A stretch of DNA of 64,000 nt from positions 14,137-78,136 of the IMG/VR virus record IMGVR_UViG_3300032770_000018. One strand, 5' to 3'. The position numbers and the translations under genes are program-made. The stretch comes from a virus. Below are positions 11,516 through 40,456 of the stretch, piece by piece. Position 1 is the stretch's first letter. The number at the start of each line of letters is the position of its first letter. The notes beneath the pieces were generated by a model. It was given only the letters and a program-made list of their open reading frames with translations, ran no database searches and was not told the origin of the DNA.

Positions 11516-11749
11516 ATGAATGGCGATGGATACGCACCAAATTACACGGTTCCAAACTTCAGCCACCCAGAGCCCAGTAACGTTGGCGTCGTTAGCGCCG
11601 GCAGCGGCCTTGAGCAGGGCGCGTACGGAGGGATCGCTCCGACCGACACGCCAAGCGGCCCGACTGAGCGGGTGGACACCGACACCGGCAAGGTCTGGTA
11701 CTTCGTTGACGGCGAATGGGTCTTCAGCGGCATCACTCTCAGCCTATGA
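11516..11749 (+). CDS. Small hypothetical protein (possible virion accessory)
   Basis: DTDTGKVWYFVDGEW resembles DDDTGTVWIFENGGW in 37605..38492; ATGA-coupled to the next gene. Confidence 0.6.
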   Translation: MNGDGYAPNYTVPNFSHPEPSNVGVVSAGSGLEQGAYGGIAPTDTPSGPTERVDTDTGKVWYFVDGEWVFSGITLSL

Positions 11750-13428
11750 AAAAACTACTCTGCACGCTTCTGGCGTCGGCCTCGCTCTGCGTGTTTGGCT
11801 CTGGCCTTCCAACATTCACCGGAATTGTGAAGGGAGACGGCTCGGGCCTAACGAATCTCAATCCTTTGTCGCTGCCACAGAGCCTGCCAGTGGGCAATAC
11901 CAATGCGATTATCGTCACCGGCCTGGGGGCCAACTTTGTGACATGGCTTAACGGGGTCAACGGCCCGGCAACCAACCTGACGGCTGCCAACGGCACGTAC
12001 TACGTGAGCAACAGCCTGGGCTTTGCCTATCTGCCAGGAACCACCTTTGCGATTGACCTGACTGTGTTTGTGCTGTCGAACGCGGTGTTCGCGGAGGACC
12101 TGAACAACGTGACGGTGCTGGCTACGGTGGCTTTGCCGGCTGCCAACCCGGCTCAGCCAGGCAGCGAGGTTGGGAGCATGACTCAGGGGACCGCGGACGG
12201 CAATGGCGCGTCCTACCCGGGATGCTCGATCAGTTACCGGAGCAACAGCGCGAACTTTTTCCCGGCCGCAACAAGTCAGGAGTTTTTCCAGTACCTTCGC
12301 GACGCGCTCAAACCGATGGCGAGTGCGCTGCTCTCCTCAAATCTTTTCAGCGCCACCAGCGGAACGCTCAAAGGTTACAGTTTGCTGAGTGGAGGCTATC
12401 CATCAGTCGGCACGTACACCTTTGTTGGCGACACCTACACCGCCGTCCCCGGTTGCTTAGACGCGATGAGCGTAGCGTCTTTGTCAAATCAGGTGAGCCG
12501 CTACATGGGGCTGGCCACGAATGGTTTTCCTTTTTTGTACGATTCGCTCCTCGCTGATTCGTCCCTGAGTGGGTACCCGGGGAGTCCACCGCTCACGAAC
12601 CTGATGTGCGCAGGTTTCCTGGGTTACGTGCAGATCGTGTACGACCTGTGGCAAGCGTCTGGTAAGGCGCCGTGGGTGTGGGGCGCCTTTGGTGGGAATG
12701 TGACGAACTTGCTCAGCACGACCAACGTCATCAACCACTTAACCTTTTCCTACAAGCAGGCGCAGCATCCGCTGGATGACGACGCGACGATGGACGCGTT
12801 CTATGACGGCCCGGATTATTTCTGCCTGGGCAGCGTGTTCCGGTGGGTGGCGTTGCAGCAAGCGGCGGAGATGGCTGACAGCGGCTACCATCCACTGGAC
12901 GCAACCGCGTTTCGGAACGAGTCGGGCCTGCTCAAATCGAACTTGGTAGCGATTCTCTGGGACAATACGGCTGGGCTGTTCAAGGCGGGGACAAATGCCT
13001 CGACACATGCTCACTGGCACAATATCCCCGCTAACCTGATGGCGGCGCGACTGGGGATCGGTTACGGGACCAACCAGGCGGCGATACTGTCCAACACGGT
13101 GGCTTTTTACGGCAAGGGCTCGTGGTCTGACGCTTGGGCGCAGGTGTATCACTATCCCACGAATGAAGTGACGCCGTACACGGGCGCAATCTCTGCCCCG
13201 TGGTCTTATCCTTACCTCTACTGGGCGGATGAGTACGGCGGCTGCCTGGAGTTGACGCGTCCCGACCTCGCTCAAGCCTACTGGCTGCAATGGGCAACGC
13301 ATTTCCTGACGATTGGGGACACTGACCCGATTGTTGGGGGTGGTGTGCGCAGTCCGAACTTTTTCAAGCCTTACGCGCACATCCGGTGGCGTGCGGGCGA
13401 TGCGGCGGCATTTAATTGCCCAAAATGA
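11746..13428 (+). CDS. Signal-peptide protein with tail-fibre motif and putative (alpha/alpha)-barrel glycosidase-like C-terminal domain
   Basis: MKKLLCTLLASASLCVFG; GDGSGLTNL tail-fibre motif; LKSNLVAILWDNTAGLF...ANLMAARLG resembles six-hairpin glycosidases. Confidence 0.6.
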   Translation: MKKLLCTLLASASLCVFGSGLPTFTGIVKGDGSGLTNLNPLSLPQSLPVGNTNAIIVTGLGANFVTWLNGVNGPATNLTAANGTYYVSNSLGFAYLPGTTFAIDLTVFVLSNAVFAEDLNNVTVLATVALPAANPAQPGSEVGSMTQGTADGNGASYPGCSISYRSNSANFFPAATSQEFFQYLRDALKPMASALLSSNLFSATSGTLKGYSLLSGGYPSVGTYTFVGDTYTAVPGCLDAMSVASLSNQVSRYMGLATNGFPFLYDSLLADSSLSGYPGSPPLTNLMCAGFLGYVQIVYDLWQASGKAPWVWGAFGGNVTNLLSTTNVINHLTFSYKQAQHPLDDDATMDAFYDGPDYFCLGSVFRWVALQQAAEMADSGYHPLDATAFRNESGLLKSNLVAILWDNTAGLFKAGTNASTHAHWHNIPANLMAARLGIGYGTNQAAILSNTVAFYGKGSWSDAWAQVYHYPTNEVTPYTGAISAPWSYPYLYWADEYGGCLELTRPDLAQAYWLQWATHFLTIGDTDPIVGGGVRSPNFFKPYAHIRWRAGDAAAFNCPK

Positions 13429-14018
13429 CCCGTCTCCTCACTATCCTCCTTTGCCTATTCGCCTTCGCGGGCGTGACGCAGACGAATCACATCACACACT
13501 TGTGGCAGGTGCAGGCCATCGGCGCGGCGAAGCGGGAAGGCCCTCACGCCTACAGCATGATGATGCAATCACTCGGACTGGTGCCCCCACCAAGGACCAA
13601 TCCGCCTGTCTTGCTCGCGGCGTGGACGGCCTCCATTGACCCGCTGGCTACCAGCAATCGAATCTATGCGGTGTCTGGCGGTAAGACCAATGTCACAGCC
13701 ACGAGCAACACCAACGAGGCCGCGCTCGTCATCACCAATCGAACTAGCCTGACCGTGACCGCCGTTGACACCGTGAGTAAGCGCGAGAGTCTGCCGTCGA
13801 ACACGGTTCACTACCCCGGCACGGCTGTTCTCCAATTCAGCAGCAAGACCGGAACAAATGTTGAGTTCACATCGGCATTCGCCGCCAAGCCACGTTGGGG
13901 CGTCACTAACTCCACCGTGACTATCAGCAACCCGCCACTCGCGGGCCTCGGTCAATTCTACCGCGCCATCGGGGGGATGAACCCGCCAAAGCGGTGGATA
14001 GATTACAACGGGCCATGA
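13425..14018 (+). CDS. Signal-peptide, FN3-like protein with C-terminal FYR motif
   Basis: MTRLLTILLCLFAFAG; VTAVDTVSKRESLPSN (FN3 last strands); GQFYRA. Confidence 0.65.
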   Translation: MTRLLTILLCLFAFAGVTQTNHITHLWQVQAIGAAKREGPHAYSMMMQSLGLVPPPRTNPPVLLAAWTASIDPLATSNRIYAVSGGKTNVTATSNTNEAALVITNRTSLTVTAVDTVSKRESLPSNTVHYPGTAVLQFSSKTGTNVEFTSAFAAKPRWGVTNSTVTISNPPLAGLGQFYRAIGGMNPPKRWIDYNGP

Positions 14019-15248: not shown

Positions 15249-16283
15249 ATGAGCGAACCGATCCACATAATTAGCCTCGGCGCTGGCGTGCAGTCTTCAA
15301 CGGATGCTCTGATGGCCAGCGAAGGGGAATCCCCGCCGATGCCGGACTTGGGTTGTTTTGCCGACACACAACGGGAGCCCCTGAGTGTTTATCTGTGGCT
15401 CTCAAAACTATGTGGCGTACAAGTGCGGTTCCGTCCAAATGGAAGGCCATACGTCGAACCGGGCGTTTACCACTCTGGCCTTCTTAAATTTCCAGTTCAC
15501 ATTGTCACAAAAGGCGACATCGGAGAAGATGCGCTGCGGGTGAGAAAGCGCAAGGACGGCAATGGTTCATGGGTGCGCAGTGGAGTTCCTCACTACAGCA
15601 TCAATGCTGATGGATTAAAAGGCCACGGACCTAGGCAATGCACGTATGATTTCAAAATTATACCGTTAGAGCAGGAGCAACGCCGATTGATTGGCAAAGA
15701 CAAGATGAGAGTATGGCGCAAGAGGCACCGATCAGCTTTGAAGGAAATTGCCAAACACGAGAAAGAACTGTCGGTGTGGAAGCGTGCAAAAAAGGCAGGG
15801 TTGCCGCATTCTCCGGTTGCTCCATTAAGACCAGAGGTGGCGTGGGCAGAATGTCAAGCAGACCCGCTTGTCGTGGTCCGTATTGGCATTTCCACAGACG
15901 AGGCAGGCCGCGCAAAGCCATCACGGATTCCTTGGGCAGTTCATCGTTGGCCGCATTTAGAGAGGGGCACGAACCGGGATGGATGCGTCGAATGGTTAGC
16001 CGCCCGAAATCTTAAAGCTCCGAAATCAGCTTGCGAATTTTGCCCATACCATGATGACGATGAATGGATCAGATTGAGGGATGTCGAACCGGAGAGCTTT
16101 GCCCGAGCTGTGCAATTCGATTATGCCTACCGCGCAGCGAAAATAAAAACTGTTTCACAAAAAGGCTTCAAGCCTTATTTACACAACAGCAGAGTCCCGC
16201 TGGACAAGGTTAAATTCCAGAAATTGCAAGGCAAACAACTGACGATGTTTAACAACGAGTGCCAAGGGATGTGCGGGGTATGA
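15249..16283 (+). CDS. PAPS-reductase-like (adenine nucleotide alpha-hydrolase) protein 1
   Basis: ISLGAGVQSS PP-loop, FADTQRE, CTYDFKI, GISTDE..R, KSACEFCPYH, ECQGMCGV; ATG at 15249. Confidence 0.85.
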   Translation: MSEPIHIISLGAGVQSSTDALMASEGESPPMPDLGCFADTQREPLSVYLWLSKLCGVQVRFRPNGRPYVEPGVYHSGLLKFPVHIVTKGDIGEDALRVRKRKDGNGSWVRSGVPHYSINADGLKGHGPRQCTYDFKIIPLEQEQRRLIGKDKMRVWRKRHRSALKEIAKHEKELSVWKRAKKAGLPHSPVAPLRPEVAWAECQADPLVVVRIGISTDEAGRAKPSRIPWAVHRWPHLERGTNRDGCVEWLAARNLKAPKSACEFCPYHDDDEWIRLRDVEPESFARAVQFDYAYRAAKIKTVSQKGFKPYLHNSRVPLDKVKFQKLQGKQLTMFNNECQGMCGV

Positions 16284-16452
16284 AACTCGCCAAAACCATC
16301 CTCACCCTGCTCGCAGCCGGAGCCGTCGTCTGGTTCGTCGTCTGGCTGCTGACGGGTGCGTTCACTGGCCGGGCAAGGACGACACCGAATACGATTCGTC
16401 TGGACAATTTCACCCGTATCACCCAACCTCACTGAATAGCACGAACAAATGA
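16280..16452 (+). pseudogene. Probable lipoprotein gene broken by a 1-nt frameshift at the lipobox (or assembly error)
   Basis: MKLAKTILTLLAAGAVVWFVVWLLTG; adding 1 nt in ACGGGTGC gives LLTG-CVHWPGKDD...STNK ending in an ATGA overlap with 16449. Confidence 0.45.
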
Positions 16453-16673
16453 ATGGGCCTTCATATTGCGAGACTTGCGGCTCGTGGCCAGCGAGAGAAA
16501 CAGCCAAGGGCCTTCGCTGCCACATTTTCGAGTGCCGTGACCTTGCCGCGGAACACCCCGTACCGTTACCAAATGACGCACAAATGCTCAAAGACTTGGC
16601 GGAAATCGGGGTTGCTGGTGCGCAGCAAAAGCTCAATGAGATGATTTTGGACGCGGTCTTCACTCCACTGTAA
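16449..16673 (+). CDS. Small Cys-containing hypothetical protein
   Basis: CETC...CHIFEC. Confidence 0.55.
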   Translation: MNGPSYCETCGSWPARETAKGLRCHIFECRDLAAEHPVPLPNDAQMLKDLAEIGVAGAQQKLNEMILDAVFTPL

Positions 16674-16699
16674 CAACAACTCAAACTGAAAGGTTCAAA

Positions 16700-17269
16700 A
16701 TGAAAAAACTGTTCGTAATAGCATCCATCGTCGCACTGTGCGGCCTGCCAGTGAAGGCTCAAACCAACACCACCCTGCCGACGGCCCCGCAGCCAAGCCC
16801 GCAGCAAAGCTGGCTGGTCAACGCCCTCAGCCTGCACAATCCCACGTTGGAGTACTTCACCAATGACATTTCGGTGGAGTTGGAGCAGGCCGCCAAGATT
16901 GATTCGGCGCTCCCTGGCACGCTCCAAAGTACTACTCTCGACCTCTGGAAGCGGATCGGCACTTCCACCGAACTGGGCGGTGATGCTGAAATTGACACGC
17001 TCGGAGTCGACAACGACATCAACGGCATTTTCGGCCACGTTGATCTGCGTCTGGATTGGGACAACATCGCCGGCGGACTTAGCCTCGGCGGTGGCCGGCA
17101 AATCACGTTGCAGACCACTCGAATCGAGGGCGGCTTCTTTGCCGAATACCGAGTGATACCCAACGTCGGCGCAAATCTCCGGTGGTACGCCGGATACCAG
17201 CCAGACGGTGTGGCAAAGAAAGCCTACACGGCTTTGCTTTTGGGCATCACGGTCGGCCTGGGCAAGTAA
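16700..17269 (+). CDS. Secreted, putative outer-membrane beta-barrel protein
   Basis: MKKLFVIASIVALCGLPVKAQ signal; alternating amphipathic strands (GHVDLRLDW, GFFAEYRV, ANLRWYAGY, LLGITVGL). Confidence 0.6.
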   Translation: MKKLFVIASIVALCGLPVKAQTNTTLPTAPQPSPQQSWLVNALSLHNPTLEYFTNDISVELEQAAKIDSALPGTLQSTTLDLWKRIGTSTELGGDAEIDTLGVDNDINGIFGHVDLRLDWDNIAGGLSLGGGRQITLQTTRIEGGFFAEYRVIPNVGANLRWYAGYQPDGVAKKAYTALLLGITVGLGK

Positions 17270-17286: not shown

Positions 17287-17838
17287 ATGGAAATCGCCCA
17301 GTACAAGGGCAGGACATTTAATCCATCCAGGATCATCGAGTTCCTCACGCGCGGCCCGTACTCCCATTCGGCTTTTCACTTTGACGAGCACGCCAGCGTG
17401 GTGGCCGCTCAACTTGTCCGGTCGGAAACGCCAATGGGAGACCTGAGGTGGATCAGTGAGGGAAGCGTGGTCGAAGCGTGGCCCCCAAAGCTGCGCTCCG
17501 TCGAATCGCTCAGCGCCCAACACGATCCTGGAACGGTGGTAGACATCTTTGGCTACGATCCACCGCTCAGTGGCACCGAGGAGGCGGCGCTCATTAGGCT
17601 CATCATCCCAGAGATCGGCACGCCCTACGACTGGAAGGACGTGCTGCGCTTCGTCACCCGCCGGAGACCCAAGCCGGAGGACCTGGAGCGGACATGGTTT
17701 TGCTCTGAGTTTGTCACCGAACTGTCCCGCAAGATCGGGCGCCCGTTCTTCAACCAGACCGAATCCTGGGAGGTTCCCCCATCATGGGTGCAACGCACTC
17801 GCGCGCTCAAATACCTGCGCACTGAGACAACAACCTGA
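17287..17838 (+). CDS. Permuted papain-like NlpC/P60 (YiiX/YebB-like) amidase
   Basis: YSHSAF (His) precedes GTPYDW and WFCSEFV (Cys). Confidence 0.85.
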   Translation: MEIAQYKGRTFNPSRIIEFLTRGPYSHSAFHFDEHASVVAAQLVRSETPMGDLRWISEGSVVEAWPPKLRSVESLSAQHDPGTVVDIFGYDPPLSGTEEAALIRLIIPEIGTPYDWKDVLRFVTRRRPKPEDLERTWFCSEFVTELSRKIGRPFFNQTESWEVPPSWVQRTRALKYLRTETTT

Positions 17839-18260: not shown

Positions 18261-19856
18261 TCAGGAAATGCTCGTGGCAAAGGCCGGCCGGTCTCGCCTG
18301 CCAACGGTCTCGGGGTCCAATGTCTGCAATTCCTCAGCGCACTCCATCAGCAGCGCGTAGGTCAGGGCGTCGAAGACGTGCTTGTTCTCGTCGTCCACCA
18401 CGTAGTTAAGGGCGCCCTTTCCCTTTTTGAGGTCGCGCAGCATCTGGATGGTCATTGTGCAGTGGGCGCTTACGCGAATTCGTCCCTGCATCAGCAGCTT
18501 TTTCAGCAACCTCACACGCTGGGCAACGCTGTGTTTGGCCTTTGGGACCCCGATAAGCTGAATTCGGTTCCTGGATGCCGCATAGACCTCCAGATGCTGG
18601 TAGGTGTCGCCGGTGCTCTGGTACTTCTCGATGGAAGATCGATCCGACCAGGCGCGTTCCAGGTCAAGCCTGTGACCGGCGATTTCCTCGATGGACAGCC
18701 TTCCCTCGGGCATGTCGGGATTGCCCTCGATGAGCCCCATGAACGCCACGGTAAATTCCTCAACCGACATTTCCTTGCCGATGTTGACCAGCTCGTCGAG
18801 CACGGAGAAATAGGACCGCCCGCTGATGACGTTTCGCTCGATGGCGACGGCAGCGTGGTTTTTGTCTCCCAGGTCCCAACCGGTTATCAACTCGGCGATC
18901 GTCGGACTGGGGTTGAGGTATTCCCAGTCGTCTTCATTCTGCGATGAGCAGTTTCCAACAACGTGAAGATTTTCACGGAAGCAGCCACGGAAGTGTCGGC
19001 TCTGGTCACCGAAGCCAAAAACCCACTTGCCGTTCACCAGGCGCTCATACATCCCGATGTCCGAGCCGCAGGCGACGGTGACCTCGTCGATCTGTCTGGG
19101 ATCCAGCCGCGGGTTCTCGCGGATACCCCATTCCAGGACGTCCGAGTTGGTCTTGAAGAAGTCGAAAACCCGCTCAGGCAGGACGGGCAACCCCACCTCG
19201 GTATTGTGCGCGGTATACTCATCGTAGGTCCACTTGCGCTCGAGGTAGAACGCCCGGTAAATCCAGGAGCTTTCGCCTTCCTCGGCCGGGTTGGTATCGG
19301 CAATCCACTGCTGTTGCTCGAACGGGATGTTGAGCATACGCAGCGCTGGGAGGCCGTACTGGAGCACGCCACGGGTGCCGAACTTCGAAAGCTCAGAAAA
19401 GTAGATGAGGCTGAACTCCATTTCCTTGAGCTTATCCTCAACGTCGTTATCAACGTCGAGGGAGAACAACATGCACTCCGATTCACCGCCGTAGCCGTTG
19501 CGCACCCGAAAGAATGGAGTGCGGGTCTGGCCGTCAACTTTTGGACCCGGACGCTTGTCGGCGCCCATGGTGGTGTAGCGGATGCCGATGCCGGATTTGA
19601 ACCACTCCGGCAGGATGTCCCGCTGCATCTTCATCCATGGGCCGCCGTCCTTCGAGTTCTTGAGCGTGCGGCTGAACATCGCGACCCGGGCGCCCTTAAC
19701 CTCCCAGAGATGGCGGACGATCTTATGCAGGACGGCGATGGTCTTGCCCGATAGGCGTGGGCCGCAGACCAGCATTGCCCGCTTCATGCAGTTGTAGACC
19801 TCCAACTGCCGATCGAACAGGTCGGGAAAGAAAATGCCTTCGGAGTCGATTGGCAT
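18261..19856 (-). CDS. terL: Terminase large subunit
   Basis: RQ..(Q motif), GPRLSGKT, IYFSE, DTNP, ENPRL, GWDLG, WSD, KHVFDALTY; ATG at 19856 overlaps the groES-like stop (TAATG). Confidence 0.92.
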   Translation of the reverse strand: MPIDSEGIFFPDLFDRQLEVYNCMKRAMLVCGPRLSGKTIAVLHKIVRHLWEVKGARVAMFSRTLKNSKDGGPWMKMQRDILPEWFKSGIGIRYTTMGADKRPGPKVDGQTRTPFFRVRNGYGGESECMLFSLDVDNDVEDKLKEMEFSLIYFSELSKFGTRGVLQYGLPALRMLNIPFEQQQWIADTNPAEEGESSWIYRAFYLERKWTYDEYTAHNTEVGLPVLPERVFDFFKTNSDVLEWGIRENPRLDPRQIDEVTVACGSDIGMYERLVNGKWVFGFGDQSRHFRGCFRENLHVVGNCSSQNEDDWEYLNPSPTIAELITGWDLGDKNHAAVAIERNVISGRSYFSVLDELVNIGKEMSVEEFTVAFMGLIEGNPDMPEGRLSIEEIAGHRLDLERAWSDRSSIEKYQSTGDTYQHLEVYAASRNRIQLIGVPKAKHSVAQRVRLLKKLLMQGRIRVSAHCTMTIQMLRDLKKGKGALNYVVDDENKHVFDALTYALLMECAEELQTLDPETVGRRDRPAFATSIS

Positions 19857-20137
19857 TAGCCGAGGATGGCCACAACGTCGCGGATGCTGTAAACGCGACA
19901 CTTCTGGCCATTGAAATCGGTTTCCTGGCTGCCGTAGCTGTTATCGACATGCACGCGATGGCCAACCCGTAGGTCTGGTGGCAGAAGGTTTGGACGACCG
20001 CCGCGGCGCCCTCCGGAGCCGAGGAGGAGAACGATCCCCGTGCTTTGGAGTTTCGACTTTCCGTGCTCGACTAGGACGAACGATTCGGTGGGAGGAGGAT
20101 CAAGTCGGACGAGGACGCGATTGCCGAGAAGCTTCAT
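19856..20137 (-). CDS. GroES/Cpn10-like co-chaperonin
   Basis: MKLLGNRVLVR...TGIVLLLGSG...LRVGHRV...YGSQE...DVVAIL, 93 aa. Confidence 0.85.
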   Translation of the reverse strand: MKLLGNRVLVRLDPPPTESFVLVEHGKSKLQSTGIVLLLGSGGRRGGRPNLLPPDLRVGHRVHVDNSYGSQETDFNGQKCRVYSIRDVVAILG

Positions 20138-29820: not shown

Positions 29821-31844
29821 TAAACTTCCCCGTCATCAACGAAGACCGGTGTCAGCAACCGGCCGCGACATGCGTGGACCCGCGGTGCTCTGACCCGACG
29901 TTTGCGGCAGCCAACCCATTGCTCTGCTCCACGACCGGAAACCTCGTGGTTAAGCCTGAGGTAGCTGAACTCTGCGCTCCGACCGAACTTCAATTCGGCC
30001 TCTACGCCAGGACGCCAACCGGGGATGTAGAGATTGCCGACGGCATCACCTGGAGCAGCTCGAACTCGGCCGTAATGACCATTGGAGCGGTGGACGGCAA
30101 GGGCAGCGCGCTCACCGCCGGGCTAGTGACCATCACCGCGACCTGGCAGGGGGTCAGCGCCTTCGCGCAGGTCAATGTTCTGGGCGTGGACGGCAGTTGC
30201 TGCGACGGCGTCCAGGTCGAGTTCGCAACGGTGGTGGACAATTCGCTTTCGATGAGCCAACCCTTCGGCGGCTCGTACCCCACCAAGCTCTCGGTGGCCA
30301 AGGCCCTCCTCCAGGGGATGATCTCGCAACTGCAGGCCAAGGACATCATGGCAGTCGGCGAGTTCAACGACGGCTACAAGACTGACCAGGGCTTTACCTC
30401 AAACCAATCTCTCCTGGACGCGGCCGTTAACGCCATCCCCACAAGCAGTGGACAGACCAACGTGCCGCTCGCCATTCAGAACGCCCAGGCGCTCCTGGCT
30501 GCTGCGCCTGCACCAACCGGCCAGACCACAAGTTCGCTAAAAATCATCCTGCTCGTGAGCGATGGCGATAGCCGGCCGCTGCTGAGCACCTCTGACATGG
30601 CGGCGCTTCTCAATTCAGCCAAGGCATTCAAGGCCTCTGGCGGGGTGATCATGTGCTGCGGCATTCGCGCCAAAGGCGATGGCTTCAACCTCCTGGACCA
30701 GATTTCGAGCGGCGGTTTCTTTATCAATGTCTTCGGCTCCGACTCGGAGGTGTCGGACGCGATCACGCGCCTGACATGCAGCATGGGCTACGTCTGCGCT
30801 GGGTCTCGGCCGCCGGACGGCTACAGCTGCGCTGGCTACGGCTACAACTGCTGTGACGCGCCGATTGGCCCTCAAGAGCCGGACCCGACGAACCCCTGGG
30901 ACCTTGAGGACGGCAGTCCTCCACAACCTCCACCGCAGCTTCCACCAGTCCAGTTCTCACCCGCAGATGGAACATTCCAAACCAACGCAGCGCACGTCTC
31001 ACTCTCCGTACCGGGGCACCCGAACGCGGCAATCATGTTTTCGATCAATGGAACAAGCACGCCCCCAGACCCGTCCTTTTCTCCTCCGGTTGGGCAGGCC
31101 TACGAAGGGCAAAACGCGCCGGTAACCCTCTGGCTTAACGGTTCGGATTCGGTCTGCATCAAGGCGATGGCGAGAGAATCTGGATACGCCGACAGTGCGG
31201 TCTCACAGGCGTGCTACCCACCAACCAGGACAATAGCAGCCCAACTCAGCGGGCTGCGCTGGGAGATGCCGCTTATTTCCGATCTCACACCATGGCTCTA
31301 CACCACGGAGTCGGTAGTCCCAGACAAAAACACCGTGCTGGTCGGAGACCCGAACCGGGTGTACAACGTGACGCTCAGGTTTCGAGGCTTTGTTGAGCCG
31401 TTTCCAGACTATACCGGAACCCCAGACCCCAGCGCCACGGGCTCGCAGCTTCTGATCGCCCTGGGGGACGTTAACCCAACCACGAGGTCAGGAGGCGGTG
31501 CGTTTGTCACGGGCGGGACCGCGCCAACCAACACGGCTGGGAATGTATACGAGTTGATTATTTCAGACCCTCCGCAGCATTTCTTCCTCAACGGGGCTGT
31601 CGCTGGACTGCTTCAAGACGTCGGGATGCTAATTGATTACACCGAGACTATCCAGATGCGAACAGGGGCAACCGTAACGATGAAGGCCAGTTCAGGCGAC
31701 GGCCAGGCAATCGGAAATGGCAGCTTTGGGGACCCCGGCGGGTCGGGATACCACGTCTGCTATCTCGCCGCCGTTGGGGTGCCCCCTTACCCTGCGGCTT
31801 TCATAACCCAGTACATCCAGATGGACGTGGTCTCAGTGACGTGA
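29817..31844 (+). CDS. Virion-associated Ig-like + vWA + Fn3-associated protein
   Basis: ITWSSSNSAV...G.VTITAT (Big_2); VVDNSLSM, GQTN, LLVSDG (vWA MIDAS); VQFSPADGTF...IKAMA...YADSAV. Confidence 0.8.
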   Translation: MINFPVINEDRCQQPAATCVDPRCSDPTFAAANPLLCSTTGNLVVKPEVAELCAPTELQFGLYARTPTGDVEIADGITWSSSNSAVMTIGAVDGKGSALTAGLVTITATWQGVSAFAQVNVLGVDGSCCDGVQVEFATVVDNSLSMSQPFGGSYPTKLSVAKALLQGMISQLQAKDIMAVGEFNDGYKTDQGFTSNQSLLDAAVNAIPTSSGQTNVPLAIQNAQALLAAAPAPTGQTTSSLKIILLVSDGDSRPLLSTSDMAALLNSAKAFKASGGVIMCCGIRAKGDGFNLLDQISSGGFFINVFGSDSEVSDAITRLTCSMGYVCAGSRPPDGYSCAGYGYNCCDAPIGPQEPDPTNPWDLEDGSPPQPPPQLPPVQFSPADGTFQTNAAHVSLSVPGHPNAAIMFSINGTSTPPDPSFSPPVGQAYEGQNAPVTLWLNGSDSVCIKAMARESGYADSAVSQACYPPTRTIAAQLSGLRWEMPLISDLTPWLYTTESVVPDKNTVLVGDPNRVYNVTLRFRGFVEPFPDYTGTPDPSATGSQLLIALGDVNPTTRSGGGAFVTGGTAPTNTAGNVYELIISDPPQHFFLNGAVAGLLQDVGMLIDYTETIQMRTGATVTMKASSGDGQAIGNGSFGDPGGSGYHVCYLAAVGVPPYPAAFITQYIQMDVVSVT

Positions 31845-32878
31845 GCCGAATAACCGTTCTTGGGGCAGTAAACAGCTACACCGGATACGGACTGCACACC
31901 ATCCAGGCGGTCAGGGATATTGAGACTCTTTCTGGCGCTTACGTCTCGGTCAGAGCGCTCTCCACTTCCGAGGCCTTTGGCGCACGCATCCCGATGGATA
32001 TTCGGCGCCGCTTTGTGAATGGTCCGCAGCCAGAGCCCTGGGAACTCCTGATCCACCCGCCGAACTTCCTGCCCACGCCGGGCAAAAAAACGGCCTACTT
32101 TTCGATGTGGGAGGCTACCCGGCTTCCTCCCAAGGGGCGCAGCCTGCTCAACAAGGCCACGGTTGTTTTCACGCCCAGCCACTGGAATGCCTCGACGTTC
32201 TCGGCCTGCGGGGTGGATGTGCCGATCGAGGTCGTGCCGCTCGGGATAAACACCAAAGCCTTTTATTATCGGCCACCCCCGCAACGACTCGACGGCCTGT
32301 GCGTCTTTGGAGCCGCAGGCAGGATGGCCCACGGCGGGGTGCGTAAGGGCATCAACGAGGTGATTGAAGCATTCCTAGCGGCGTTCCCGAAGCAGGACGA
32401 CGCGCGGTTGAGGATAAAATGCTGGCCGGACTGCCCGGTCGCAAAGGTGCGGGACAACCGAATCAGTATCACGGCCGCCTACCTGAGCGACGACGAGGTA
32501 GCTGAATGGTTTTCCGGCATCCACGTTTTCGTCAGTGCCGCCCGGGCAGAGGGCTGGGGATTGATGCAACACCAGGCCATGGCGGTAGGGCGCCCGATTA
32601 TAACCGTGGATTTCGGCGGCGTCCGGGAGTTCTTCAAGCCGGCGATGGGCTACGCGCTGCCCTATCGGATGGTCCAGGCGACCAAAGCCTACGACGGCTG
32701 CGGCCACTGGGCAGAGCCGGACTTCGATGATTTTGTTTCGATGATGCGCCACGTGTACGAGCGGCGCGAGCAGGCGCAGGAAAAAGGCCGGGCCGCCGCA
32801 GTGGCCATGATGGGCACCGACTGGCTCGACGCCAATCGCGTGCTGGTCAGCAAACTCATGAAACTTGGGGCTTTGTGA
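31841..32878 (+). CDS. GT-B (GT4-like) glycosyltransferase
   Basis: MWEAT, TPSHWN, VVPLGI, RKG, FVSAARAEGWGL..HQAMAVGRPII. Confidence 0.9.
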   Translation: MSRITVLGAVNSYTGYGLHTIQAVRDIETLSGAYVSVRALSTSEAFGARIPMDIRRRFVNGPQPEPWELLIHPPNFLPTPGKKTAYFSMWEATRLPPKGRSLLNKATVVFTPSHWNASTFSACGVDVPIEVVPLGINTKAFYYRPPPQRLDGLCVFGAAGRMAHGGVRKGINEVIEAFLAAFPKQDDARLRIKCWPDCPVAKVRDNRISITAAYLSDDEVAEWFSGIHVFVSAARAEGWGLMQHQAMAVGRPIITVDFGGVREFFKPAMGYALPYRMVQATKAYDGCGHWAEPDFDDFVSMMRHVYERREQAQEKGRAAAVAMMGTDWLDANRVLVSKLMKLGAL

Positions 32879-32881
32879 ACT

Positions 32882-33394
32882 ATGCCGGGATCTGACTACA
32901 GGTTCGACGCGACGGCCGCAGCGGTCGTGCGTGTGATGTTCCGTGGCCGAAAGCCGCTTGTCCTGGACGTTGGCGCCGGCGCCGGGAAGGGAGCAACGGT
33001 CTTTGGACCACCTTTGTCGCGCGAGGTTCACGGGCTTGAAATCTTCCGCAAATACATCGACGAGTTCGACCTGCGAACGAAGTACGCTGAGGTCTTCTGT
33101 GGCAACATCATGGATTGGAGCCCGTGTCAGCTCTCGAAGTACGACCTCCTGGTTGCCGGCGACGTGCTCGAGCACCTCACTATTGACGATGCCAGGAAGC
33201 TAATCCGCAACTGCCAACTGTCCGGATGCAGTATGATCGTCCAGGTGCCGTTCCTCTACGAGCAGGGTCCGGAGAACGGCAACGAGTACGAGCGGCACAT
33301 TCAGCCGGATCTGACGCGCGACCTGATGGCTGTCCGCTACCCCATGCTCTTCGAGGTCTTGGCCGATCCCCGTCTGGGCTTGTACATCCTATGA
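32882..33394 (+). CDS. Class I SAM-dependent methyltransferase
   Basis: VLDVGAGAG, GLEIF, GDVLEHL. Confidence 0.9.
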   Translation: MPGSDYRFDATAAAVVRVMFRGRKPLVLDVGAGAGKGATVFGPPLSREVHGLEIFRKYIDEFDLRTKYAEVFCGNIMDWSPCQLSKYDLLVAGDVLEHLTIDDARKLIRNCQLSGCSMIVQVPFLYEQGPENGNEYERHIQPDLTRDLMAVRYPMLFEVLADPRLGLYIL

Positions 33395-34155
33395 ATCCAA
33401 CCGTTTCGCTCGCAATCTTCACCCACAACGACCTTCCGATGCTCAAGGCCACACTGCTTCACGAGCAGCGCTGGGTAGACCAGGTGTGCATCCTCGACAT
33501 GGCTTCCGCCGATGGCACTCAAGAATTCTGTGAGGCGTGGCTCCGGCCCGGCGTGGACGTATACCGGCGCCGGGATACCAATACCTGCCCTGACCTGGGG
33601 TTCTCCGAAGCCAAAAACGCCGTCATGGACATGGCGACCTCCGACTGGGTGCTTTGCGCCGGCGCCGACACCATCATGGACTGGCGGCAGGCACCGAACA
33701 TCAAGCGCGTATTGGCCGAGGTTAAAGCCGACGCATTGAGCATAAACACCGTCAGCATCCTGCCATTCAAAGAGTGCCAACCCCACCAGATCGAGGAGGC
33801 AGTGGCACGCAAGAACTTCGGGAAGGATGGGCGCCATCGGTGCTTTGTTCGTCGTGGCTCAGGAATTGTCTTCAAGGGCTACATCCACGAAGAGCCATTC
33901 CGCGGAGAGGTAAACGTGTTCGGAGAGGCTCAGCTAACACAGCTTTCCAGATTTCACCTGCACGGCTGGGGCAACGACAACCTGCGTTCCTGGCGCTACG
34001 GCTGGATGCTGCTCCGGGCCTGGCAGCGTGAGCCCGCGCTTCAGGCATACACAAACGAATGGTGGTACAAGGAGTATTGCCCTCAGAACGCCGACCTGCT
34101 GAAAAGGCAATCAGAGGCCTACGAGGAATATCGCCAGAAAACCGGTGACCGCTGA
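33391..34155 (+). CDS. GT-A (GT2-like) glycosyltransferase
   Basis: VSLAIFTHN, ILDMASADGT, FSEAKN, DWVL, FKGYIHE. Confidence 0.85.
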   Translation: MNPTVSLAIFTHNDLPMLKATLLHEQRWVDQVCILDMASADGTQEFCEAWLRPGVDVYRRRDTNTCPDLGFSEAKNAVMDMATSDWVLCAGADTIMDWRQAPNIKRVLAEVKADALSINTVSILPFKECQPHQIEEAVARKNFGKDGRHRCFVRRGSGIVFKGYIHEEPFRGEVNVFGEAQLTQLSRFHLHGWGNDNLRSWRYGWMLLRAWQREPALQAYTNEWWYKEYCPQNADLLKRQSEAYEEYRQKTGDR

Positions 34156-34882
34156 GCCCAAGATCGCCGGCGGACTCATCACCCGGAACTACAGCCGGTT
34201 TCCGGGGACCTTCCCAGTGCTAAAGCAGATGTCGGACGTGACCATCGTCATTGACGACAGCCCGGGGTCCGCAATTCCAGACATTGGCGCCGACGAGACC
34301 GTCTCACTGCGGAGAAAGGGCGAGTGGAACGACACGGCCAACCAGGTCCTGCTCTTCCTGCGGGCGGCCGTCCATGGGTGCAACTGGGTTATTGGCTGCG
34401 GCGACGACATGCTGCCATCGGTTGCGCTGTTCAACGGGATAAGAGCCCTCTCCAAGACCGATGCCGACATGGTATGGGTTGAGTTTCGGGAGCTTTGGGA
34501 GGGCATTGACCAATACCGCTCCGATGGCATTTGGGGGACGAAGGGGGCGCCGGCTCTGGTGCGCAACTGGATGCTCGAGCAGAGGATAACGCTGCCTGAC
34601 CTGACCATGCGGCTTCACCGAAGGGCCTGGAATGAGGACCGGAAGGCCGCGCATACGAAAGCCGACGCCAAATACGCCGTCTATCACTTCGGGTCGCTAA
34701 CGCGGGCACTCCGCGAGGCTAGGGTCGAGAAGTATCGCCGGGCTGACCCGACAAACCGTTTCCAGCGCGACTACTCCTACATGCTGGACGATTCAGGCAT
34801 ACAGCTTTCCAAGGTGCCGCGGGAGGACCAGGGGGCCATGCTGGAATGGATCGGTGGGTCCGCAAATCCAATTAAGGCTTGA
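34145..34882 (+). CDS. GT2-like glycosyltransferase
   Basis: IVIDDS, WVIGCGDD, LW...YRSDG.W, VYHFG. Confidence 0.65.
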   Translation: MTAEPKIAGGLITRNYSRFPGTFPVLKQMSDVTIVIDDSPGSAIPDIGADETVSLRRKGEWNDTANQVLLFLRAAVHGCNWVIGCGDDMLPSVALFNGIRALSKTDADMVWVEFRELWEGIDQYRSDGIWGTKGAPALVRNWMLEQRITLPDLTMRLHRRAWNEDRKAAHTKADAKYAVYHFGSLTRALREARVEKYRRADPTNRFQRDYSYMLDDSGIQLSKVPREDQGAMLEWIGGSANPIKA

Positions 34883-35598: not shown

Positions 35599-37605
35599 AT
35601 GCCATCGCTCCAAATAAGAGGCGTCCCAGTGGCGCCGCTGACGGGGCCGCTCGACCTCCGAAGCGAAGTCGCACTGATGGAGGGATCGTCGCTTAGGATG
35701 CGGCAGAACTTCCAAGCGACCGGAAAGGGCAAGCTCACGCGTGGCTGTGGATGGGCCAAACTGCTGGACTCGGCGACCTACAACAACCAGGACTTTCACG
35801 ACCAACTCCTCTATTTCGGGCCCAATGGGGCGATCCGCCAGCCAGTCACAATGCTCTTCCCAGCCGAGTCCACGATGGGCGTCCGCAGCCTAATCCTGGC
35901 CACACAGAGCCAAATCTGCATGTTGGTCGAGTCCTCCGGCGACTACCGCGTTCTTGGAAACGCCTACGGTGGCGTCCCATCGGCATCGGCATCGGCGCCA
36001 CGCTTCAAAGCCGCCCAGGTCAACGACTACGTCGCTTTCACCAACGACTTCAACAAGCCGATGTATTACGTGCTCGAGGACGGCTCGGGCACGCTGCTCC
36101 AGACTTTCGACGACCTTGACACCATCGGGGTCAGCCGGGCCGCTGTAACCTGGGCCTGGAGAGGATGCTTGTTCTTCGCTGACGTGGTGATGGACGGCCA
36201 GCGGCAGAGCAACCTGCTGCTTTGGTCGGATTATCAGAACCCGACGAGCTTCGACCCAGCCGTCCTTTCGTCGATCACTGGCACGAAATATCTCAATCCA
36301 GGAGAGCGCATCTTGGCTGGCTTGGAGTTCGGAAACTCCTTCCTCATCTACACAACCGAGAACATTTGGGAGATGGTGGTCGTCGGCGGAGACCAGTCGT
36401 TCGACTTCGCTATCCGCTACCCAGGCTCAAAGAACCGTTCAATCGGCCTGCTGAAATACCCGAATACCCTCGCATCCCTCGGCGATGAGCACTGCTACCT
36501 GGCTGAGGACGGCCTTTACACGTTCAACCCGTACTATCTCAAGCCCGACCGCGTCGAGTGGGCGCACCTGGCGACGCCGGAGGTCCTGGACAACATTGAC
36601 TCGGCCAACTGCTCGGTCCACGTCGGGCTCTACAACAACTACGAGTACCTGCTTTCGGTCGCAAAGGTTGGGGACGCCAACAACTGCCCAAGTGTCACTC
36701 TCAGGCTGAATACCGCCTATAGCTGCGCCGACGTGGTCGACGCTGGCTTTACCGCCTTTTGCAATTTCCAGAGCTTCCTTTCCCCAACGGTTCGCGATTT
36801 CATCACCTCGAACGGAATATGCTCTTTGCAGGGAATGGCGAACCTCGGCTTCCCGCTAGGCCAGCAGGGCGTTGCAAAGCCTCCGGGAGCAATCACATCG
36901 GCATTCACCCCGGACTGCTTCTACACTAAGGTCACGCAGACGATTGGCGATGTGACCGTCGAGGACTGGAATCAGGCGCACGCCGCCCCAACGTCGCTTT
37001 GCGCCCTATTGGGCAACCAGACCTTTGATAGCGTCTGCCGGAAGTGCGCGGGGCCAACGTTGCTGGTCGCCGCCAGCTCGGACGACTGGTGCCTGAAGCA
37101 AATCGGAGGCGTTAGCTACCGTGAGGTCTGCCTGAATCCGTCCGCCATCGGGAGCTTCATCACCAATGCGGGATACAGCAGCGCCGTCGGGAACTACGCG
37201 CTGCGTGGGTATGACTCAATACTCAGGCTCTCTCCGATGTACATTGCCGGCGAGCGCGCGCCGATGATGCAACTCGACAGTGTGACGCTCGACTTCGAGG
37301 CTAGAGCATCAAGCCAACCGGCTTCGGTCTCACTGCGCGTTGGCGTCTCGGCCCAACCGACCGACCCCAACGGGCCCGACATGCAGTGGTTTGCCCACAG
37401 CGCCAAGACGCTGGCCCTTCAAAGCTCCACCACGCCAGCCCAGCGCCTCGCCGCCAATGTGACGCCCTCCCAAGTAATGCGCTGGCAGCTTTACCGAGTA
37501 GCCAGGATGCTCTACCTCGAATTGACCATTTCAGGGACGGGTGGGGACGCTGACTTTAGCCGCGTGACCGTTGAGGCCGGCCCGTCGCGCGCGAGGAACT
37601 TCTAA
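35599..37605 (+). CDS. Tail tubular/nozzle (stabilisation-type) protein
   Basis: 668 aa, beta-rich (LFFAD, LLWSD, LIYT..IWEM), located in the tail module. Confidence 0.6.
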   Translation: MPSLQIRGVPVAPLTGPLDLRSEVALMEGSSLRMRQNFQATGKGKLTRGCGWAKLLDSATYNNQDFHDQLLYFGPNGAIRQPVTMLFPAESTMGVRSLILATQSQICMLVESSGDYRVLGNAYGGVPSASASAPRFKAAQVNDYVAFTNDFNKPMYYVLEDGSGTLLQTFDDLDTIGVSRAAVTWAWRGCLFFADVVMDGQRQSNLLLWSDYQNPTSFDPAVLSSITGTKYLNPGERILAGLEFGNSFLIYTTENIWEMVVVGGDQSFDFAIRYPGSKNRSIGLLKYPNTLASLGDEHCYLAEDGLYTFNPYYLKPDRVEWAHLATPEVLDNIDSANCSVHVGLYNNYEYLLSVAKVGDANNCPSVTLRLNTAYSCADVVDAGFTAFCNFQSFLSPTVRDFITSNGICSLQGMANLGFPLGQQGVAKPPGAITSAFTPDCFYTKVTQTIGDVTVEDWNQAHAAPTSLCALLGNQTFDSVCRKCAGPTLLVAASSDDWCLKQIGGVSYREVCLNPSAIGSFITNAGYSSAVGNYALRGYDSILRLSPMYIAGERAPMMQLDSVTLDFEARASSQPASVSLRVGVSAQPTDPNGPDMQWFAHSAKTLALQSSTTPAQRLAANVTPSQVMRWQLYRVARMLYLELTISGTGGDADFSRVTVEAGPSRARNF

Positions 37606-38492
37606 TGGCAGCGAGAGCCAACCCGCTGGACGGTTTCAGGACGTCGGTAACGACGAATGATTTCCGGGTGCCGGAGATCCCAAACCTCGGGCAACTCATC
37701 GAGCAGCACGGCTTTTCCGCCGGCATGAAAGCCCATGCCCAGGCGATGACGCAGTGGAGCAAGGAACTTGAGGCCACAGTCAACGCCCGCCTCCAACCAA
37801 AGGACCAGGCGGCGAGCCTCGGATCGGCTGCGGCTCCAGCGTCCACGACACCACCCACCGGCGGCACGACCGTCTCCTCCGGTTCAGGCTCAACTAGCCC
37901 GTCAGCACCATCCTTTCCCGGGTACAGCACTCTCCTCCATGCCTTCGCCGACGATAACTGGAACAACGCGTTGCGAGATTTCATCAGCACCATCCTACAT
38001 GGGCTGGGAATCCTCACCGAGGGAAGCTATGGAGGGCAGACACCGCCGTTCACCCCGGCAGCAATGTCCATAGCGGTGGACGATGACACAGGAACGGTCT
38101 GGATTTTTGAAAATGGGGGCTGGGTTAAAATGCAGACAGCCGCCAGCCAGGGACCGGTCTATTTTTACTGCGCGGACACTGGACTATGGCACCAGGTCTC
38201 GGTTGTCGGCGATCCATCCGACTGGGGGATTGACGGCGTTGGGGTCCAATTTCCCCCGCAGGGCGTTACGCACGCCTACACGTCATTTCAGTTCCCTTGC
38301 GCCGATACCAGGCTTTGGCATGAAGTCAGCCTTGTAGGAACTCCTCCCACGTGGGCGATTAACCCGACCGGGGCTGGCCCGTCCGACATTGACGTTGACT
38401 TCGGCTTTGCCCTACAACCGTTTTGGAATGCGGACCTTGAAGAATGGGTGTATCCGAAGCTCGTCGGCTCACCGCCGAGCTGGGGATTCTAA
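37605..38492 (+). CDS. Virion-associated hypothetical protein with C-terminal repeats
   Basis: Repeats CADTGLWHQVSVVGDP.DWGI / CADTRLWHEVSLVGTP.TWAI / LVGSPPSWGF. Confidence 0.65.
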   Translation: MAARANPLDGFRTSVTTNDFRVPEIPNLGQLIEQHGFSAGMKAHAQAMTQWSKELEATVNARLQPKDQAASLGSAAAPASTTPPTGGTTVSSGSGSTSPSAPSFPGYSTLLHAFADDNWNNALRDFISTILHGLGILTEGSYGGQTPPFTPAAMSIAVDDDTGTVWIFENGGWVKMQTAASQGPVYFYCADTGLWHQVSVVGDPSDWGIDGVGVQFPPQGVTHAYTSFQFPCADTRLWHEVSLVGTPPTWAINPTGAGPSDIDVDFGFALQPFWNADLEEWVYPKLVGSPPSWGF

Positions 38493-38495
38493 ACT

Positions 38496-39671
38496 ATGAA
38501 ACGAACACATTTGATAATCGTAATGTTGGCCGGGCTCGCGCTTTTACTGCTGGCCGCAACCCTGCCCAATCGCACGGTGCTGTGCGACTCGAACGGGAAC
38601 CTGCTCTGGCCCACGAACTTCTTTTCCGATGCCACCAACGGCGTGGACTTCGCAGCGGCGGTCAATGCCGTTTCGACTGTCGGAGGCGGAGGCATCAGCG
38701 CAGCCAACGCGACGAATGCCGCTCGCACTGTAGTTACGTGGAGCAATTCGCTCTATCTGCCTATTGGCGGCACAGCAGTCGCGGCCTCATCCGGTTGGCC
38801 TACAACTTGGGACTGGACGGCGGCGGTGACAGGGAAACCGGATTTCGCGACGAACACGTATGCGGGGGTGTCGAACGCGTTGGGGTTTGTGGCGGCAACG
38901 AACGGGGCGGCGATTGGGGCAGCGCAGCTTCCGGCGTTGAGCGGCGATATCACGACGAGCGCGGGGTCGGCGGCGACTTCCTTGAAGGCAACCGGGACGG
39001 CCGGCACCTATCGGAGCGTGACGTTCGATGCGCAGGGGCGCGAGACGGGCGGCACAAGTCCGACGACATTCGCGGGCTACGGCGTGAGCGATAGCGCCGC
39101 AAACTTGCTGGCGGCTTTGACGGACCGGAACTTTTTCGGGGCGACAAATGAGGTTGCCACCAACCTGAACAGCGCCGGGGTGACGGCCGGGTATGTGCTG
39201 ACGGCGACATCCTCAAATAACCCGGCGTGGGAACCGTCCCAGGGCGGAGGCACGACCGGGGCTCTGACTAACAACTCGGCCCAGGGCATGATCAATTTGC
39301 AGGGACCAGTCAACGTCACGAACGGAGTTTACCAGGGCACGACAACGCTGGCTTACACGGGCTACACCAACGTTCTGGTGGACTTCTCGACGGGCACGCG
39401 GTTCAAGTTGCTCATCTCGACCAACACTTGGTTGATTCCGACAAACATTGGCACCGTGCTGGACTCGGATTTTGTTCTCAAAACCTTTATGGCCAGCCCG
39501 GGTGTGTTCACGGTTGGGTTGGGGACCAACGCCCTGGGCCAGCGCTTCACGCTGCCCGGCGGCGTCGCGTTCACGGCGACCACCAATGTCGGCGCGGCAG
39601 ACCTTTACACCATGATGGCCGATTACACCGGGACCAACACCATGATCGTCTTAGCCCCCAACTTCAAATGA
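38496..39671 (+). CDS. Tail-fibre-like protein with N-terminal signal peptide
   Basis: MKRTHLIIVMLAGLALLLLAA; GTYRSVTFDAQGRETGGTSPTTFAGYGVSD and AGYVLTAT...PAW tail-fibre motifs. Confidence 0.8.
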   Translation: MKRTHLIIVMLAGLALLLLAATLPNRTVLCDSNGNLLWPTNFFSDATNGVDFAAAVNAVSTVGGGGISAANATNAARTVVTWSNSLYLPIGGTAVAASSGWPTTWDWTAAVTGKPDFATNTYAGVSNALGFVAATNGAAIGAAQLPALSGDITTSAGSAATSLKATGTAGTYRSVTFDAQGRETGGTSPTTFAGYGVSDSAANLLAALTDRNFFGATNEVATNLNSAGVTAGYVLTATSSNNPAWEPSQGGGTTGALTNNSAQGMINLQGPVNVTNGVYQGTTTLAYTGYTNVLVDFSTGTRFKLLISTNTWLIPTNIGTVLDSDFVLKTFMASPGVFTVGLGTNALGQRFTLPGGVAFTATTNVGAADLYTMMADYTGTNTMIVLAPNFK

Positions 39672-40456
39672 AAGCCTTGCTATTCTACATCTTTCTGGTT
39701 TGTGCATCGGCCTCGGCGCAGATGGCGCTCTGGAACAAGACACAGTTGGCCATAGTCCCGCAAGGGTTGGTCGGATACTGGACGCTGGACGTCGCGGATT
39801 GCCCAAGCGGAAAGGCGCTGGATGCCAGCGGCGCGGCGACTAGCGCGTTCCAAGTCGCGGCTCCAACCCAGACAAATGGAGTTGTTGGGCAGGGGATGTT
39901 CTTTAATGGCTCAACCCAATACATTGACATCACAACTTCATCGAATGCCTGGTACAATTTTAAGACCGGAACGGTGTGTTTGTGGTGCAAGGAGCGGGAT
40001 ACGGGAGGGGAAACGATCCCGTGGTCAGCGTCGTCAACCAGCGCATCCACCACAGAAATTTTCATTGAGGAAGATTGGCGCTCTGGAAACAAATTCTGGA
40101 ATATCGTTGGTCGTTACAATAGCAGCACAGAATGGCAGTACACGATTTACATTCCTGGGGGCTACGCCTCTAACAACTGGGTTCACATCGCCCTCGTCCA
40201 AAATGGGGTCGCCCCGACGTTCTTTACGAACGGGGTTCTGTCAACGATGACGGGAACAACCACCACGGCTCCGTCATACTGGCTAAGCAACATTTTGTAT
40301 TCGGCTAACGCCACGCCCGCGAACAAGATTTCCATCGGGCTGTTGCATCGGAGTACGCTGGTGTCTCAGTATGCTGGGGCGGTGGATGATGTGCGGGTTT
40401 ACAACTACCCGCTTTCGGCAGCGCAGATTGCGAACATTTACAAGGCGGGACATTGA
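39668..40456 (+). CDS. LamG/concanavalin-like domain protein with signal peptide
   Basis: MKALLFYIFLVCASASAQ; GLVGYWTLD, FNGSTQYI, WVHIALV, GAVDDVRVYNYPLSAAQI. Confidence 0.88.
   Translation: MKALLFYIFLVCASASAQMALWNKTQLAIVPQGLVGYWTLDVADCPSGKALDASGAATSAFQVAAPTQTNGVVGQGMFFNGSTQYIDITTSSNAWYNFKTGTVCLWCKERDTGGETIPWSASSTSASTTEIFIEEDWRSGNKFWNIVGRYNSSTEWQYTIYIPGGYASNNWVHIALVQNGVAPTFFTNGVLSTMTGTTTTAPSYWLSNILYSANATPANKISIGLLHRSTLVSQYAGAVDDVRVYNYPLSAAQIANIYKAGH

Follow-up and report, generated by a model that had tools for sequence, protein, structure and literature searches.

Conserved Sec-type signal peptides on fibre-like and lectin-like proteins encoded in two gene cassettes of a crAss/SU10-like short-tailed phage

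To our knowledge, textbook tailed phages all build their fibres in the cytoplasm. In this study, a stretch of 64,000 nucleotides (the window), comprising bases 14137–78136 of the 78,136-bp IMG/VR record IMGVR_UViG_3300032770_000018 and belonging to a phage labelled G000, was analyzed for a set of proteins with Sec-type signal peptides, namely a fibre-like protein, a lectin-domain protein, a putative glycosidase and a small partner of the latter. Their genes, named here like all others by their start coordinates in the window (38496, 39668, 11746 and 13425, respectively), lie in two cassettes, A (11516–14018) and B (37605–40456). The signals are genuine, N-terminal and conserved, and a comparison of gene content among related phages indicates that the cassettes are accessory and horizontally mobile. 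Export of the proteins, or membrane anchoring in the case of 38496, is highly probable from the sequence, because the signal recognition particle (SRP)/Sec machinery captures N-termini of this kind. The reading that we favour, with a confidence somewhat short of even, is that they are Sec-exported accessory proteins acting on glycans of the host envelope, and not part of an obligatory virion-assembly step.

A preliminary description of the window had proposed signal peptides on these four proteins and, as a candidate, an envelope-routed system of virion maturation. All four open reading frames (ORFs) are present, and their N-termini, together with that of a fifth protein (16700), pass a strict home-made rule, according to which a net basic n-region must be followed, within the first 28 residues, by an uncharged 9-residue window with a mean Kyte–Doolittle value of 2.2 or more; internal Met-started segments used as controls failed it without exception (0 of 573 passed). 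In translation, each of the five N-termini begins with basic residues, continues into a hydrophobic core free of charges and then has small residues ahead of a polar stretch. The rule is passed by eight of the 50 ORFs of at least 150 residues in the whole genome, two of which are borderline and one of which is the capsid protein. The features of signal peptidase I substrates of the Sec pathway are found (an n-region, an h-region, small residues at −3/−1 and a true N-terminal position), with a weak cleavage site in 38496, the N-terminus of which contains an 18-residue Leu/Ile-rich core and may be either a signal or a signal-anchor. This core, which is rich in Leu, Ile and Val and scores 3.1 on average, differs from the weakly hydrophobic, Gly/Ala/Ser-rich segment of a signal-arrest-release (SAR) domain. 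A lipoprotein reading was rejected, as none of the five signals contains a good lipobox, and no C-terminal domain of the type IX secretion system was found by Pfam.

The reading frames themselves support these starts. ATGA overlaps are found at three of the four cassette junctions, and the fourth, between 37605 and 38496, consists of TAA, one codon and ATG. When the first 30 codons are compared between G000 and a second phage, G001, the differences at the first, second and third codon positions number 3/3/11 in 11746 (seven synonymous and five non-synonymous codons) and 3/4/14 in 39668 (11 synonymous and seven non-synonymous codons). Because the differences are biased towards the third position, the hydrophobic segments must be translated and under purifying selection. 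True starts downstream of these segments were rejected on the basis of this bias and of the conservation in orthologues; furthermore, the downstream Met of 39668 is not kept in G001.

Orthologues keep their signals while the signal sequence drifts. The signal of 39668 is ∼75% identical between G000 and G001, compared with 87% for the whole protein, and that of 13425 is ∼65–70% identical in G001, compared with 84% overall. A more distant orthologue of 13425 (P0174, 52% identity) carries an unrelated signal sequence, and each of the three members of this family (100, 84 and 52% identity) thus has a signal of a different sequence. The exception to this drift is the signal of 11746, which hardly differs in G001 and is more strongly conserved than either flank: the first 78 nucleotides (11746–11823) are ∼92% identical to G001 at the nucleotide level and the flanks are ∼64% identical or less. 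This conserved start may reflect a joint left by recombination, or else a regulatory element at the 5′ end of the gene. The export that the preliminary description had proposed is a natural prediction from signals conserved in this way.

Both cassettes have the same order, in which a signal-less ORF with a D-x-D-T-G-x-V-W motif is followed by a signal-bearing fibre or enzyme and then by a small signal-bearing partner (Table 1), and the genes within each are translationally coupled. The 11516 ORF ends with ...DTDTGKVWYF..GEWVF, and the middle of 37605 holds DDDTGTVWIF..GGWV, which is the same D-x-D-T-G-x-V-W...G-x-W-V motif. In 37605, an anchor-like protein, the N-terminal ∼65 residues are conserved across the phage family, and the C-terminal part, with three Trp-rich repeats, is variable. 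A small motif ORF also precedes the signal-bearing partner in G001 and in another phage, G006. The stop codon between 37605 and 38496 (38490–38498) separates two genes in the same frame, and in the event of read-through they would be fused, with the signal ending up inside the product; this possibility was set aside, since the corresponding junction in G006 is a 340-nucleotide gap holding another gene.

In cassette A, the signal of 11746 (residues ∼1–18) is followed by a conserved N-terminal region of ∼65 residues that includes the GDGSGLTNL motif named in the preliminary description (residues 30–38). In the ESM Atlas, the protein has a feature score of 0.86 and a template-modelling (TM) score of 0.55–0.59 to clusters of the rhamnosidase/trehalase type, with a model pLDDT of 0.48; these structure-based values are a lead towards a six-hairpin glycosidase body (GH78/GH63/trehalase-like). 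Neither a Pfam profile match nor a PDB sequence match was found for 11746. Its homologue in G001, P0024, has the first 86 residues in common with it (53% identity) and then continues into a different C-terminal body. For the third gene, 13425, no Pfam or PHROG match was found and the AlphaFold2 (AF2) pLDDT was 38, so that the earlier label of FN3-like was not verified.

In cassette B, the fibre-like protein 38496 contains the motif GTAGTYRSVTFDAQGRE...PTTFAGYG, again as described previously, and its assignment as a fibre is borne out by its middle region, which is homologous to the tail-fibre shafts of cultured phages: tblastn matched it to the annotated fibres RSA1 gpH of a Ralstonia phage and SnaP-R1 gp42 of a Sphaerotilus phage, and it falls in phrog_5181. 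SnaP-R1 gp42 begins with a T7 gp17-like N-domain and has no signal. No tail-binding N-terminal domain of the fibre type is found in 38496, in which the signal peptide forms the N-terminus. The AF2 model of 38496 (pLDDT 34) is confident for the helix at residues 3–22 only. The partner protein 39668 contains a LamG domain (Pfam PF13385, Laminin_G_3, E = 2.8e-11, 44.2 bits against a cut-off of 27.6; phrog_8510), and PDB sequence searches with both 38496 and 39668 were empty. The location of the two genes in the tail module, as stated before, was upheld: in the late operon, cassette B comes directly after the nozzle gene. Promoter or terminator sites of its own were not detected beyond the shuffled expectation, although the promoters of the host may be of another type than those sought.

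Table 1. Cassettes and other features of the window. Positions are those of the 64,000-nucleotide window.
Feature	Position	Strand	Remarks
Cassette A, gene 1	11516–11749	+	77 aa; no signal; D-x-D-T-G-x-V-W motif at the end; stop overlaps the start of 11746 (ATGA)
Cassette A, gene 2	11746–13428	+	560 aa; signal at residues ∼1–18; six-hairpin-glycosidase-like body (lead)
Cassette A, gene 3	13425–14018	+	197 aa; signal peptide; ATGA overlap with 11746
Cassette B, gene 1	37605–38492	+	295 aa; anchor-like; no signal
Cassette B, gene 2	38496–39671	+	391 aa; fibre-like; shaft motif; 140-aa C-terminal tip
Cassette B, gene 3	39668–40456	+	262 aa; LamG/ConA-like lectin domain; cleavable-looking signal (ASA|Q); ATGA overlap with 38496
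Signal-bearing protein outside the four named ORFs	16700–17269	+	189 aa
Large terminase	18261–19901	−	phrog_2
Portal			Weak SU10 likeness
Scaffold-like protein			Pro/Ala-rich
SU10/crAss-like major capsid protein	24800–26755	+	Atlas feature score 0.96, with a structural alignment over residues ∼122–633
Nozzle homologue	35599–37605	+	668 aa; no signal; core tail genes end here

Comparison with other phages showed how the cassettes are distributed. True relatives of G000 were defined by capsid, portal and nozzle, with capsid identities of 63–71%; they are syntenic with G000, but differ exactly at both cassette sites. The nozzle is 47–54% identical in G006 and G007. In two of the loci examined (L022 and L025), the slot of cassette B holds the nozzle, a 185-residue anchor and a 120-residue signal-less tip protein, and in G007 it holds the nozzle and a 71-residue anchor only; a signal-bearing fibre is absent from all three. 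In G006 (L046), this slot (∼66139–70677, minus strand) contains an anchor, a 119-residue tip protein and a signal-bearing fibre of 1216 residues, in which long repeats of the form ATN...LAINLAG and numerous BNR-like repeats (S-x-D-G-x-x-W) occur. The C-terminal 100 residues of this fibre are homologous to the neighbouring signal-less tip protein (36% identity, E = 4e-13). A type A cassette is likewise present in G006, where the small motif ORF is accompanied by a signal-bearing protein that contains the GDGS motif and by two small proteins with signals. At three further loci (L003, L008 and L011), a signal-bearing fibre is flanked by one or two additional signal-bearing ORFs.

The reverse situation is found in G001 (L016), a complete 72.5-kb phage with a capsid, portal and nozzle that are not common with those of G000. 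The genes common to the two phages are almost only the first 86 residues of 11746, the 13425 protein, the signal of 16700, the fibre tip and the LamG protein; the last 141 residues of 38496 are 85% identical and the LamG protein is 87% identical. This distribution, read from genome comparison, marks the cassettes as accessory and horizontally mobile.

In G000, four further proteins of the adsorption apparatus lack signals: the nozzle and the three adhesin candidates 29817 (VWA and Ig-like domains), 34915 (tail-collar domain) and 37605. A cytoplasm-built adsorption apparatus therefore exists, and the particle could be completed without the cassettes. The candidate 29817, a 675-residue protein, opens a block of ∼5 kb specific to G000 (29817–34882) that also contains two glycosyltransferase-like genes, and ∼0.9 kb is found at this position in G006; the first residues of the VWA protein match a 283-residue protein of G006. 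The preliminary description had drawn on a set of glycosyltransferases as support for its proposed system and had suggested that the exported proteins are possibly glycosylated. The glycosyltransferase-like genes lie within this G000-specific block and have no signals, and they lend no support of this kind. The idea of glycosylation was rejected because the N-x-S/T counts are within one standard deviation of those of shuffled sequences and the extended sequon D/E-x-N-x-S/T is absent.

Signal-bearing fibres extend beyond this group of phages. Among loci in IMG/VR with the shaft motif, ten of 12 encode a signal-bearing fibre, of up to 1433 residues. Both of the two loci with this motif in bacterial metagenome-assembled genomes (MAGs), one from Acidobacteriales and one from Chitinophagaceae, are signal-bearing and are situated among phage genes. 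A shaft-profile search of 1.84 billion representatives returned 3709 matches; 136 complete proteins were available among the best 150 of these, which were examined, and 39 of the 136 (29%) pass the signal rule. Many representatives from this search have the look of Bacteroidota cell-surface proteins and not of phage proteins. In the literature searched, no account of phage tail fibres with signal peptides was found.

The record ends in direct terminal repeats and was judged to be complete. Its gene content (a terminase, a portal, a scaffold-like protein, an SU10/crAss-like capsid protein and a podovirus nozzle) identifies a short-tailed phage, and G000 is a complete crAss/SU10-like short-tailed phage. 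The nozzle matches PDB entries 8zkm_E and 8zkk_O, the nozzle of Vibrio phage VP1 (E = 3e-4), and phrog_3287, a virion structural protein. The genome also contains a giant gene encoding 4616 residues. A 183-residue protein of the ClpP/crotonase superfamily (17287–17838; phrog_1128, E = 6.6e-14) adjoins the terminase genes, and its product may be a prohead protease able to trim a capsid leader. The fifth signal-bearing protein, 16700, has a signal in common with G001 (76% identity over 21 residues), in which the last residue of the protein is Phe, and it is possibly an outer-membrane β-barrel of the Lom type. It forms part of a segment (16259–17269) that encodes a 58-residue membrane protein and this 189-residue protein, both of which are partly common to G001.

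Some features hint at the host. Motifs resembling Shine–Dalgarno sequences precede seven of 49 genes, which is no excess over the background of 13.5% at random positions. A small-x-small site is followed by Gln in three of the five signals of the window; among 45 signal-bearing relatives, this is so in 24. Gln at +1 of the signal peptidase site is known as the Bacteroidetes Q rule (Matrishin et al., 2023; PMC10367356). The lack of Shine–Dalgarno use and the Gln at +1 together hint at a Bacteroidota-type host, despite a G+C content of 60%.

Several known systems resemble the cassettes in part. Fibres and tailspikes of podoviruses (of the T7 gp17 type, including SnaP-R1 gp42, with RSA1 gpH for the shaft) share with 38496 the shaft motif, the slot behind the nozzle and the logic of a conserved N-terminus with exchanged tips; however, they have a cytoplasmic virion-binding N-domain and no signal, whereas 38496 carries a Sec-type signal and its gene is dispensable in relatives. 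The accessory distribution of the cassettes among related phages is more like that of morons. Lom and Bor of λ, Llp of T5 and Cor of φ80 and N15 bear signals, are encoded among or beside tail genes and can be dispensed with in particle assembly. Their site of action is the host envelope, where their effects include a blocking of receptors that protects progeny and excludes superinfection. These are small outer-membrane proteins or lipoproteins that are not fibre-like, many of them with their own promoters, and we know of none that shares domains with the receptor-binding proteins of its own phage.

In Porphyromonas gingivalis phages, signals of the Sec type, some with Gln at +1, have been reported on genes without a known function as well as on major capsid proteins; they were read as marking envelope modifiers or as leaders that the prohead protease cleaves off (Matrishin et al., 2023; PMC10367356). 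Tail fibres are not named in that work, whereas the signal-bearing genes described here are fibre-, lectin- and glycosidase-like and are arranged in cassettes. A bacterial precedent is provided by the mosaic adhesive trimer (MAT) fibres of Bdellovibrio bacteriovorus, which are exported, surface-displayed trimers that resemble tail fibres (Caulton et al., 2024; PMC10769870). The likeness comprises a signal peptide, a conserved region directly after it and swappable C-terminal tips that include lectin folds; in the MAT family, the conserved region is a β-rich N-domain of ∼130 residues. MAT fibres are encoded by chromosomal genes of a predator and their display has been shown, whereas the present proteins are encoded in late operons of complete phage genomes and are known from sequence. 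A PDB sequence search found no match to the solved pieces of MAT fibres.

In the mechanism that we favour, the cassettes would be co-transcribed with the late genes, and the two downstream proteins of each would be threaded through SecYEG. Signal peptidase I would trim 11746, 13425 and 39668, whereas 38496 would be either trimmed or held by its long hydrophobic core. The exported proteins would fold and trimerise in the periplasm, where their glycosidase-like and lectin-like domains would act on or bind glycans of the host envelope. The likeliest purpose would be destruction or masking of the receptor that the phage itself uses, both on the infected cell and on its debris, through which progeny would be protected and superinfection excluded; a second possible purpose is that of adhesins. 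With either purpose, the cassette proteins would be phage-borne counterparts of the bacterial surface fibres that resemble tail fibres. The presence of signals on both downstream partners fits this mechanism, as is expected for proteins that must meet. An action on the envelope is preferred because the cassettes are dispensable and mobile, the adsorption apparatus is free of signals, the domains appear to be directed at carbohydrates, the fibre tip of G006 is a copy and the Bdellovibrio fibres offer a precedent. The homology of the G006 fibre tip to a tip protein of the same phage fits a receptor mask in particular.

A number of observations weigh against this preference. Cassette B occupies the podovirus fibre slot, is coupled to an anchor gene and shows no visible promoter or terminator of its own, which is unlike classical morons. 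The conserved N-terminus after the signal with a swapped body, as seen in 11746 and P0024, is a hallmark of receptor-binding proteins attached to the virion. In addition, the C-terminal part of the anchor 37605 is remodelled in G000, and a shaft is not obviously needed by a periplasmic mask. The glycosidase assignment consists of language-model and low-confidence structure leads, and the signals were called by a home-made rule, so that export is a prediction. Prophage relatives of G000 were absent from 802 sampled genomes: a search for its capsid protein was negative in 401 genomes of the phylum to which the Acidobacteriales MAG belongs and in 401 of the phylum to which the Chitinophagaceae MAG belongs.

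Several of these observations would be accounted for if the proteins were exported virion fibres, in which case a fibre, a lectin and an enzyme folded in the periplasm would attach to the tail built in the cytoplasm, either once the holin has opened the inner membrane or after lysis, through the anchor 37605 in cassette B and the 11516-type ORF in cassette A. The position and coupling of cassette B, the shared N-terminus of 11746 and P0024 and the lack of a visible promoter or terminator all agree with this, as do the anchor, in which a family-wide N-domain is joined to a C-terminal part that varies with the downstream genes, and the shaft, which is homologous to real fibres of P2-like Ralstonia and T7-like Sphaerotilus phages. 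Furthermore, the tip and the LamG protein have moved together between unrelated phages, in the manner of host-range modules. However, the membrane would separate the fibre from the particle, no case in a tailed phage was found in the literature searched, relatives manage without the fibre, the nozzle and the other adhesins of G000 are without signals, and the Leu/Ile-rich core may hold 38496 in the membrane. Docking of this kind is accordingly regarded as possible but distinctly less probable than an action on the envelope. A general form of this proposal, in which this phage and many uncultured short-tailed phages follow a split route with Sec-exported fibres, lectins and depolymerases captured by anchors at lysis, is given slightly less credence again.

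It is improbable that the hydrophobic N-termini are not export signals at all, but trimer cores, tail plugs or artefacts of start choice in proteins that stay in the cytoplasm. The nucleotide conservation at the start of 11746 (∼92% over 78 nucleotides, compared with 64% upstream) is unusual for signals, and the IMG gene caller places the start of 38496 nine codons later. However, the alternative start of 38496 still opens with the hydrophobic core, translation of the segments is evident from the third-position-biased substitutions, and the n-, h- and c-regions with Gln at +1 in three of five sites fit signal peptidase I substrates, which SRP/Sec would be expected to capture. Cultured-phage fibres with the same shaft also have ordinary N-terminal domains.

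The capsid protein of G000 begins with an N-terminal extension of ∼50 residues, in which a basic start and two hydrophobic segments precede the conserved motif TST..RFQ(D/E)TPC, and ends with a hydrophobic tail of 19 residues that is unique to G000, its relatives ending with ...NLY. The hydrophobic-ended capsid noted in the preliminary description is thus real within the capsid lineage, but the N-terminal part is a two-segment extension rather than a cleavable signal, and it is absent from some close relatives: it is kept in the closest ones, whereas the capsid proteins of L028 and L031 (68% identical) start at the TST..RFQ(D/E)TPC motif. Very improbable, and the weakest of the explanations considered, is a membrane-organised assembly, in which the extension, with its predicted N-in/C-in topology, would hold proheads at the inner membrane on its cytoplasmic side, opposite type II-anchored fibres at the same sites on the periplasmic side, and the particle would retain a membrane component or be completed at the membrane; the conservation of the extension in the closest relatives and the 18–20-residue hydrophobic cores without a clear cleavage site in 38496 and the G006 fibre agree with it, but L028 and L031 do without the extension, capsid leaders of Porphyromonas phages have been read as trimmed by the prohead protease (PMC10367356), no membrane-remodelling or lipid genes were identified in G000 and the remaining signals look cleavable.

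The meaning of these signals for phage biology depends on the fate of the exported proteins. If they are decoys that mask or destroy receptors and are derived from the phage's own receptor-binding modules, as would follow from an action on the envelope, they would represent a new class of exclusion and progeny-protection functions. If docking at lysis is true, assembly would include a step across a membrane, of a kind that has not been described for tailed phages, and if fibres are routinely exported and join late, this would be a new assembly route, and genome-based prediction of host range must account for export. The signal is a simple sequence mark that splits the proteins annotated as tail fibres into two populations, which are currently lumped together in phage-therapy design and receptor prediction.

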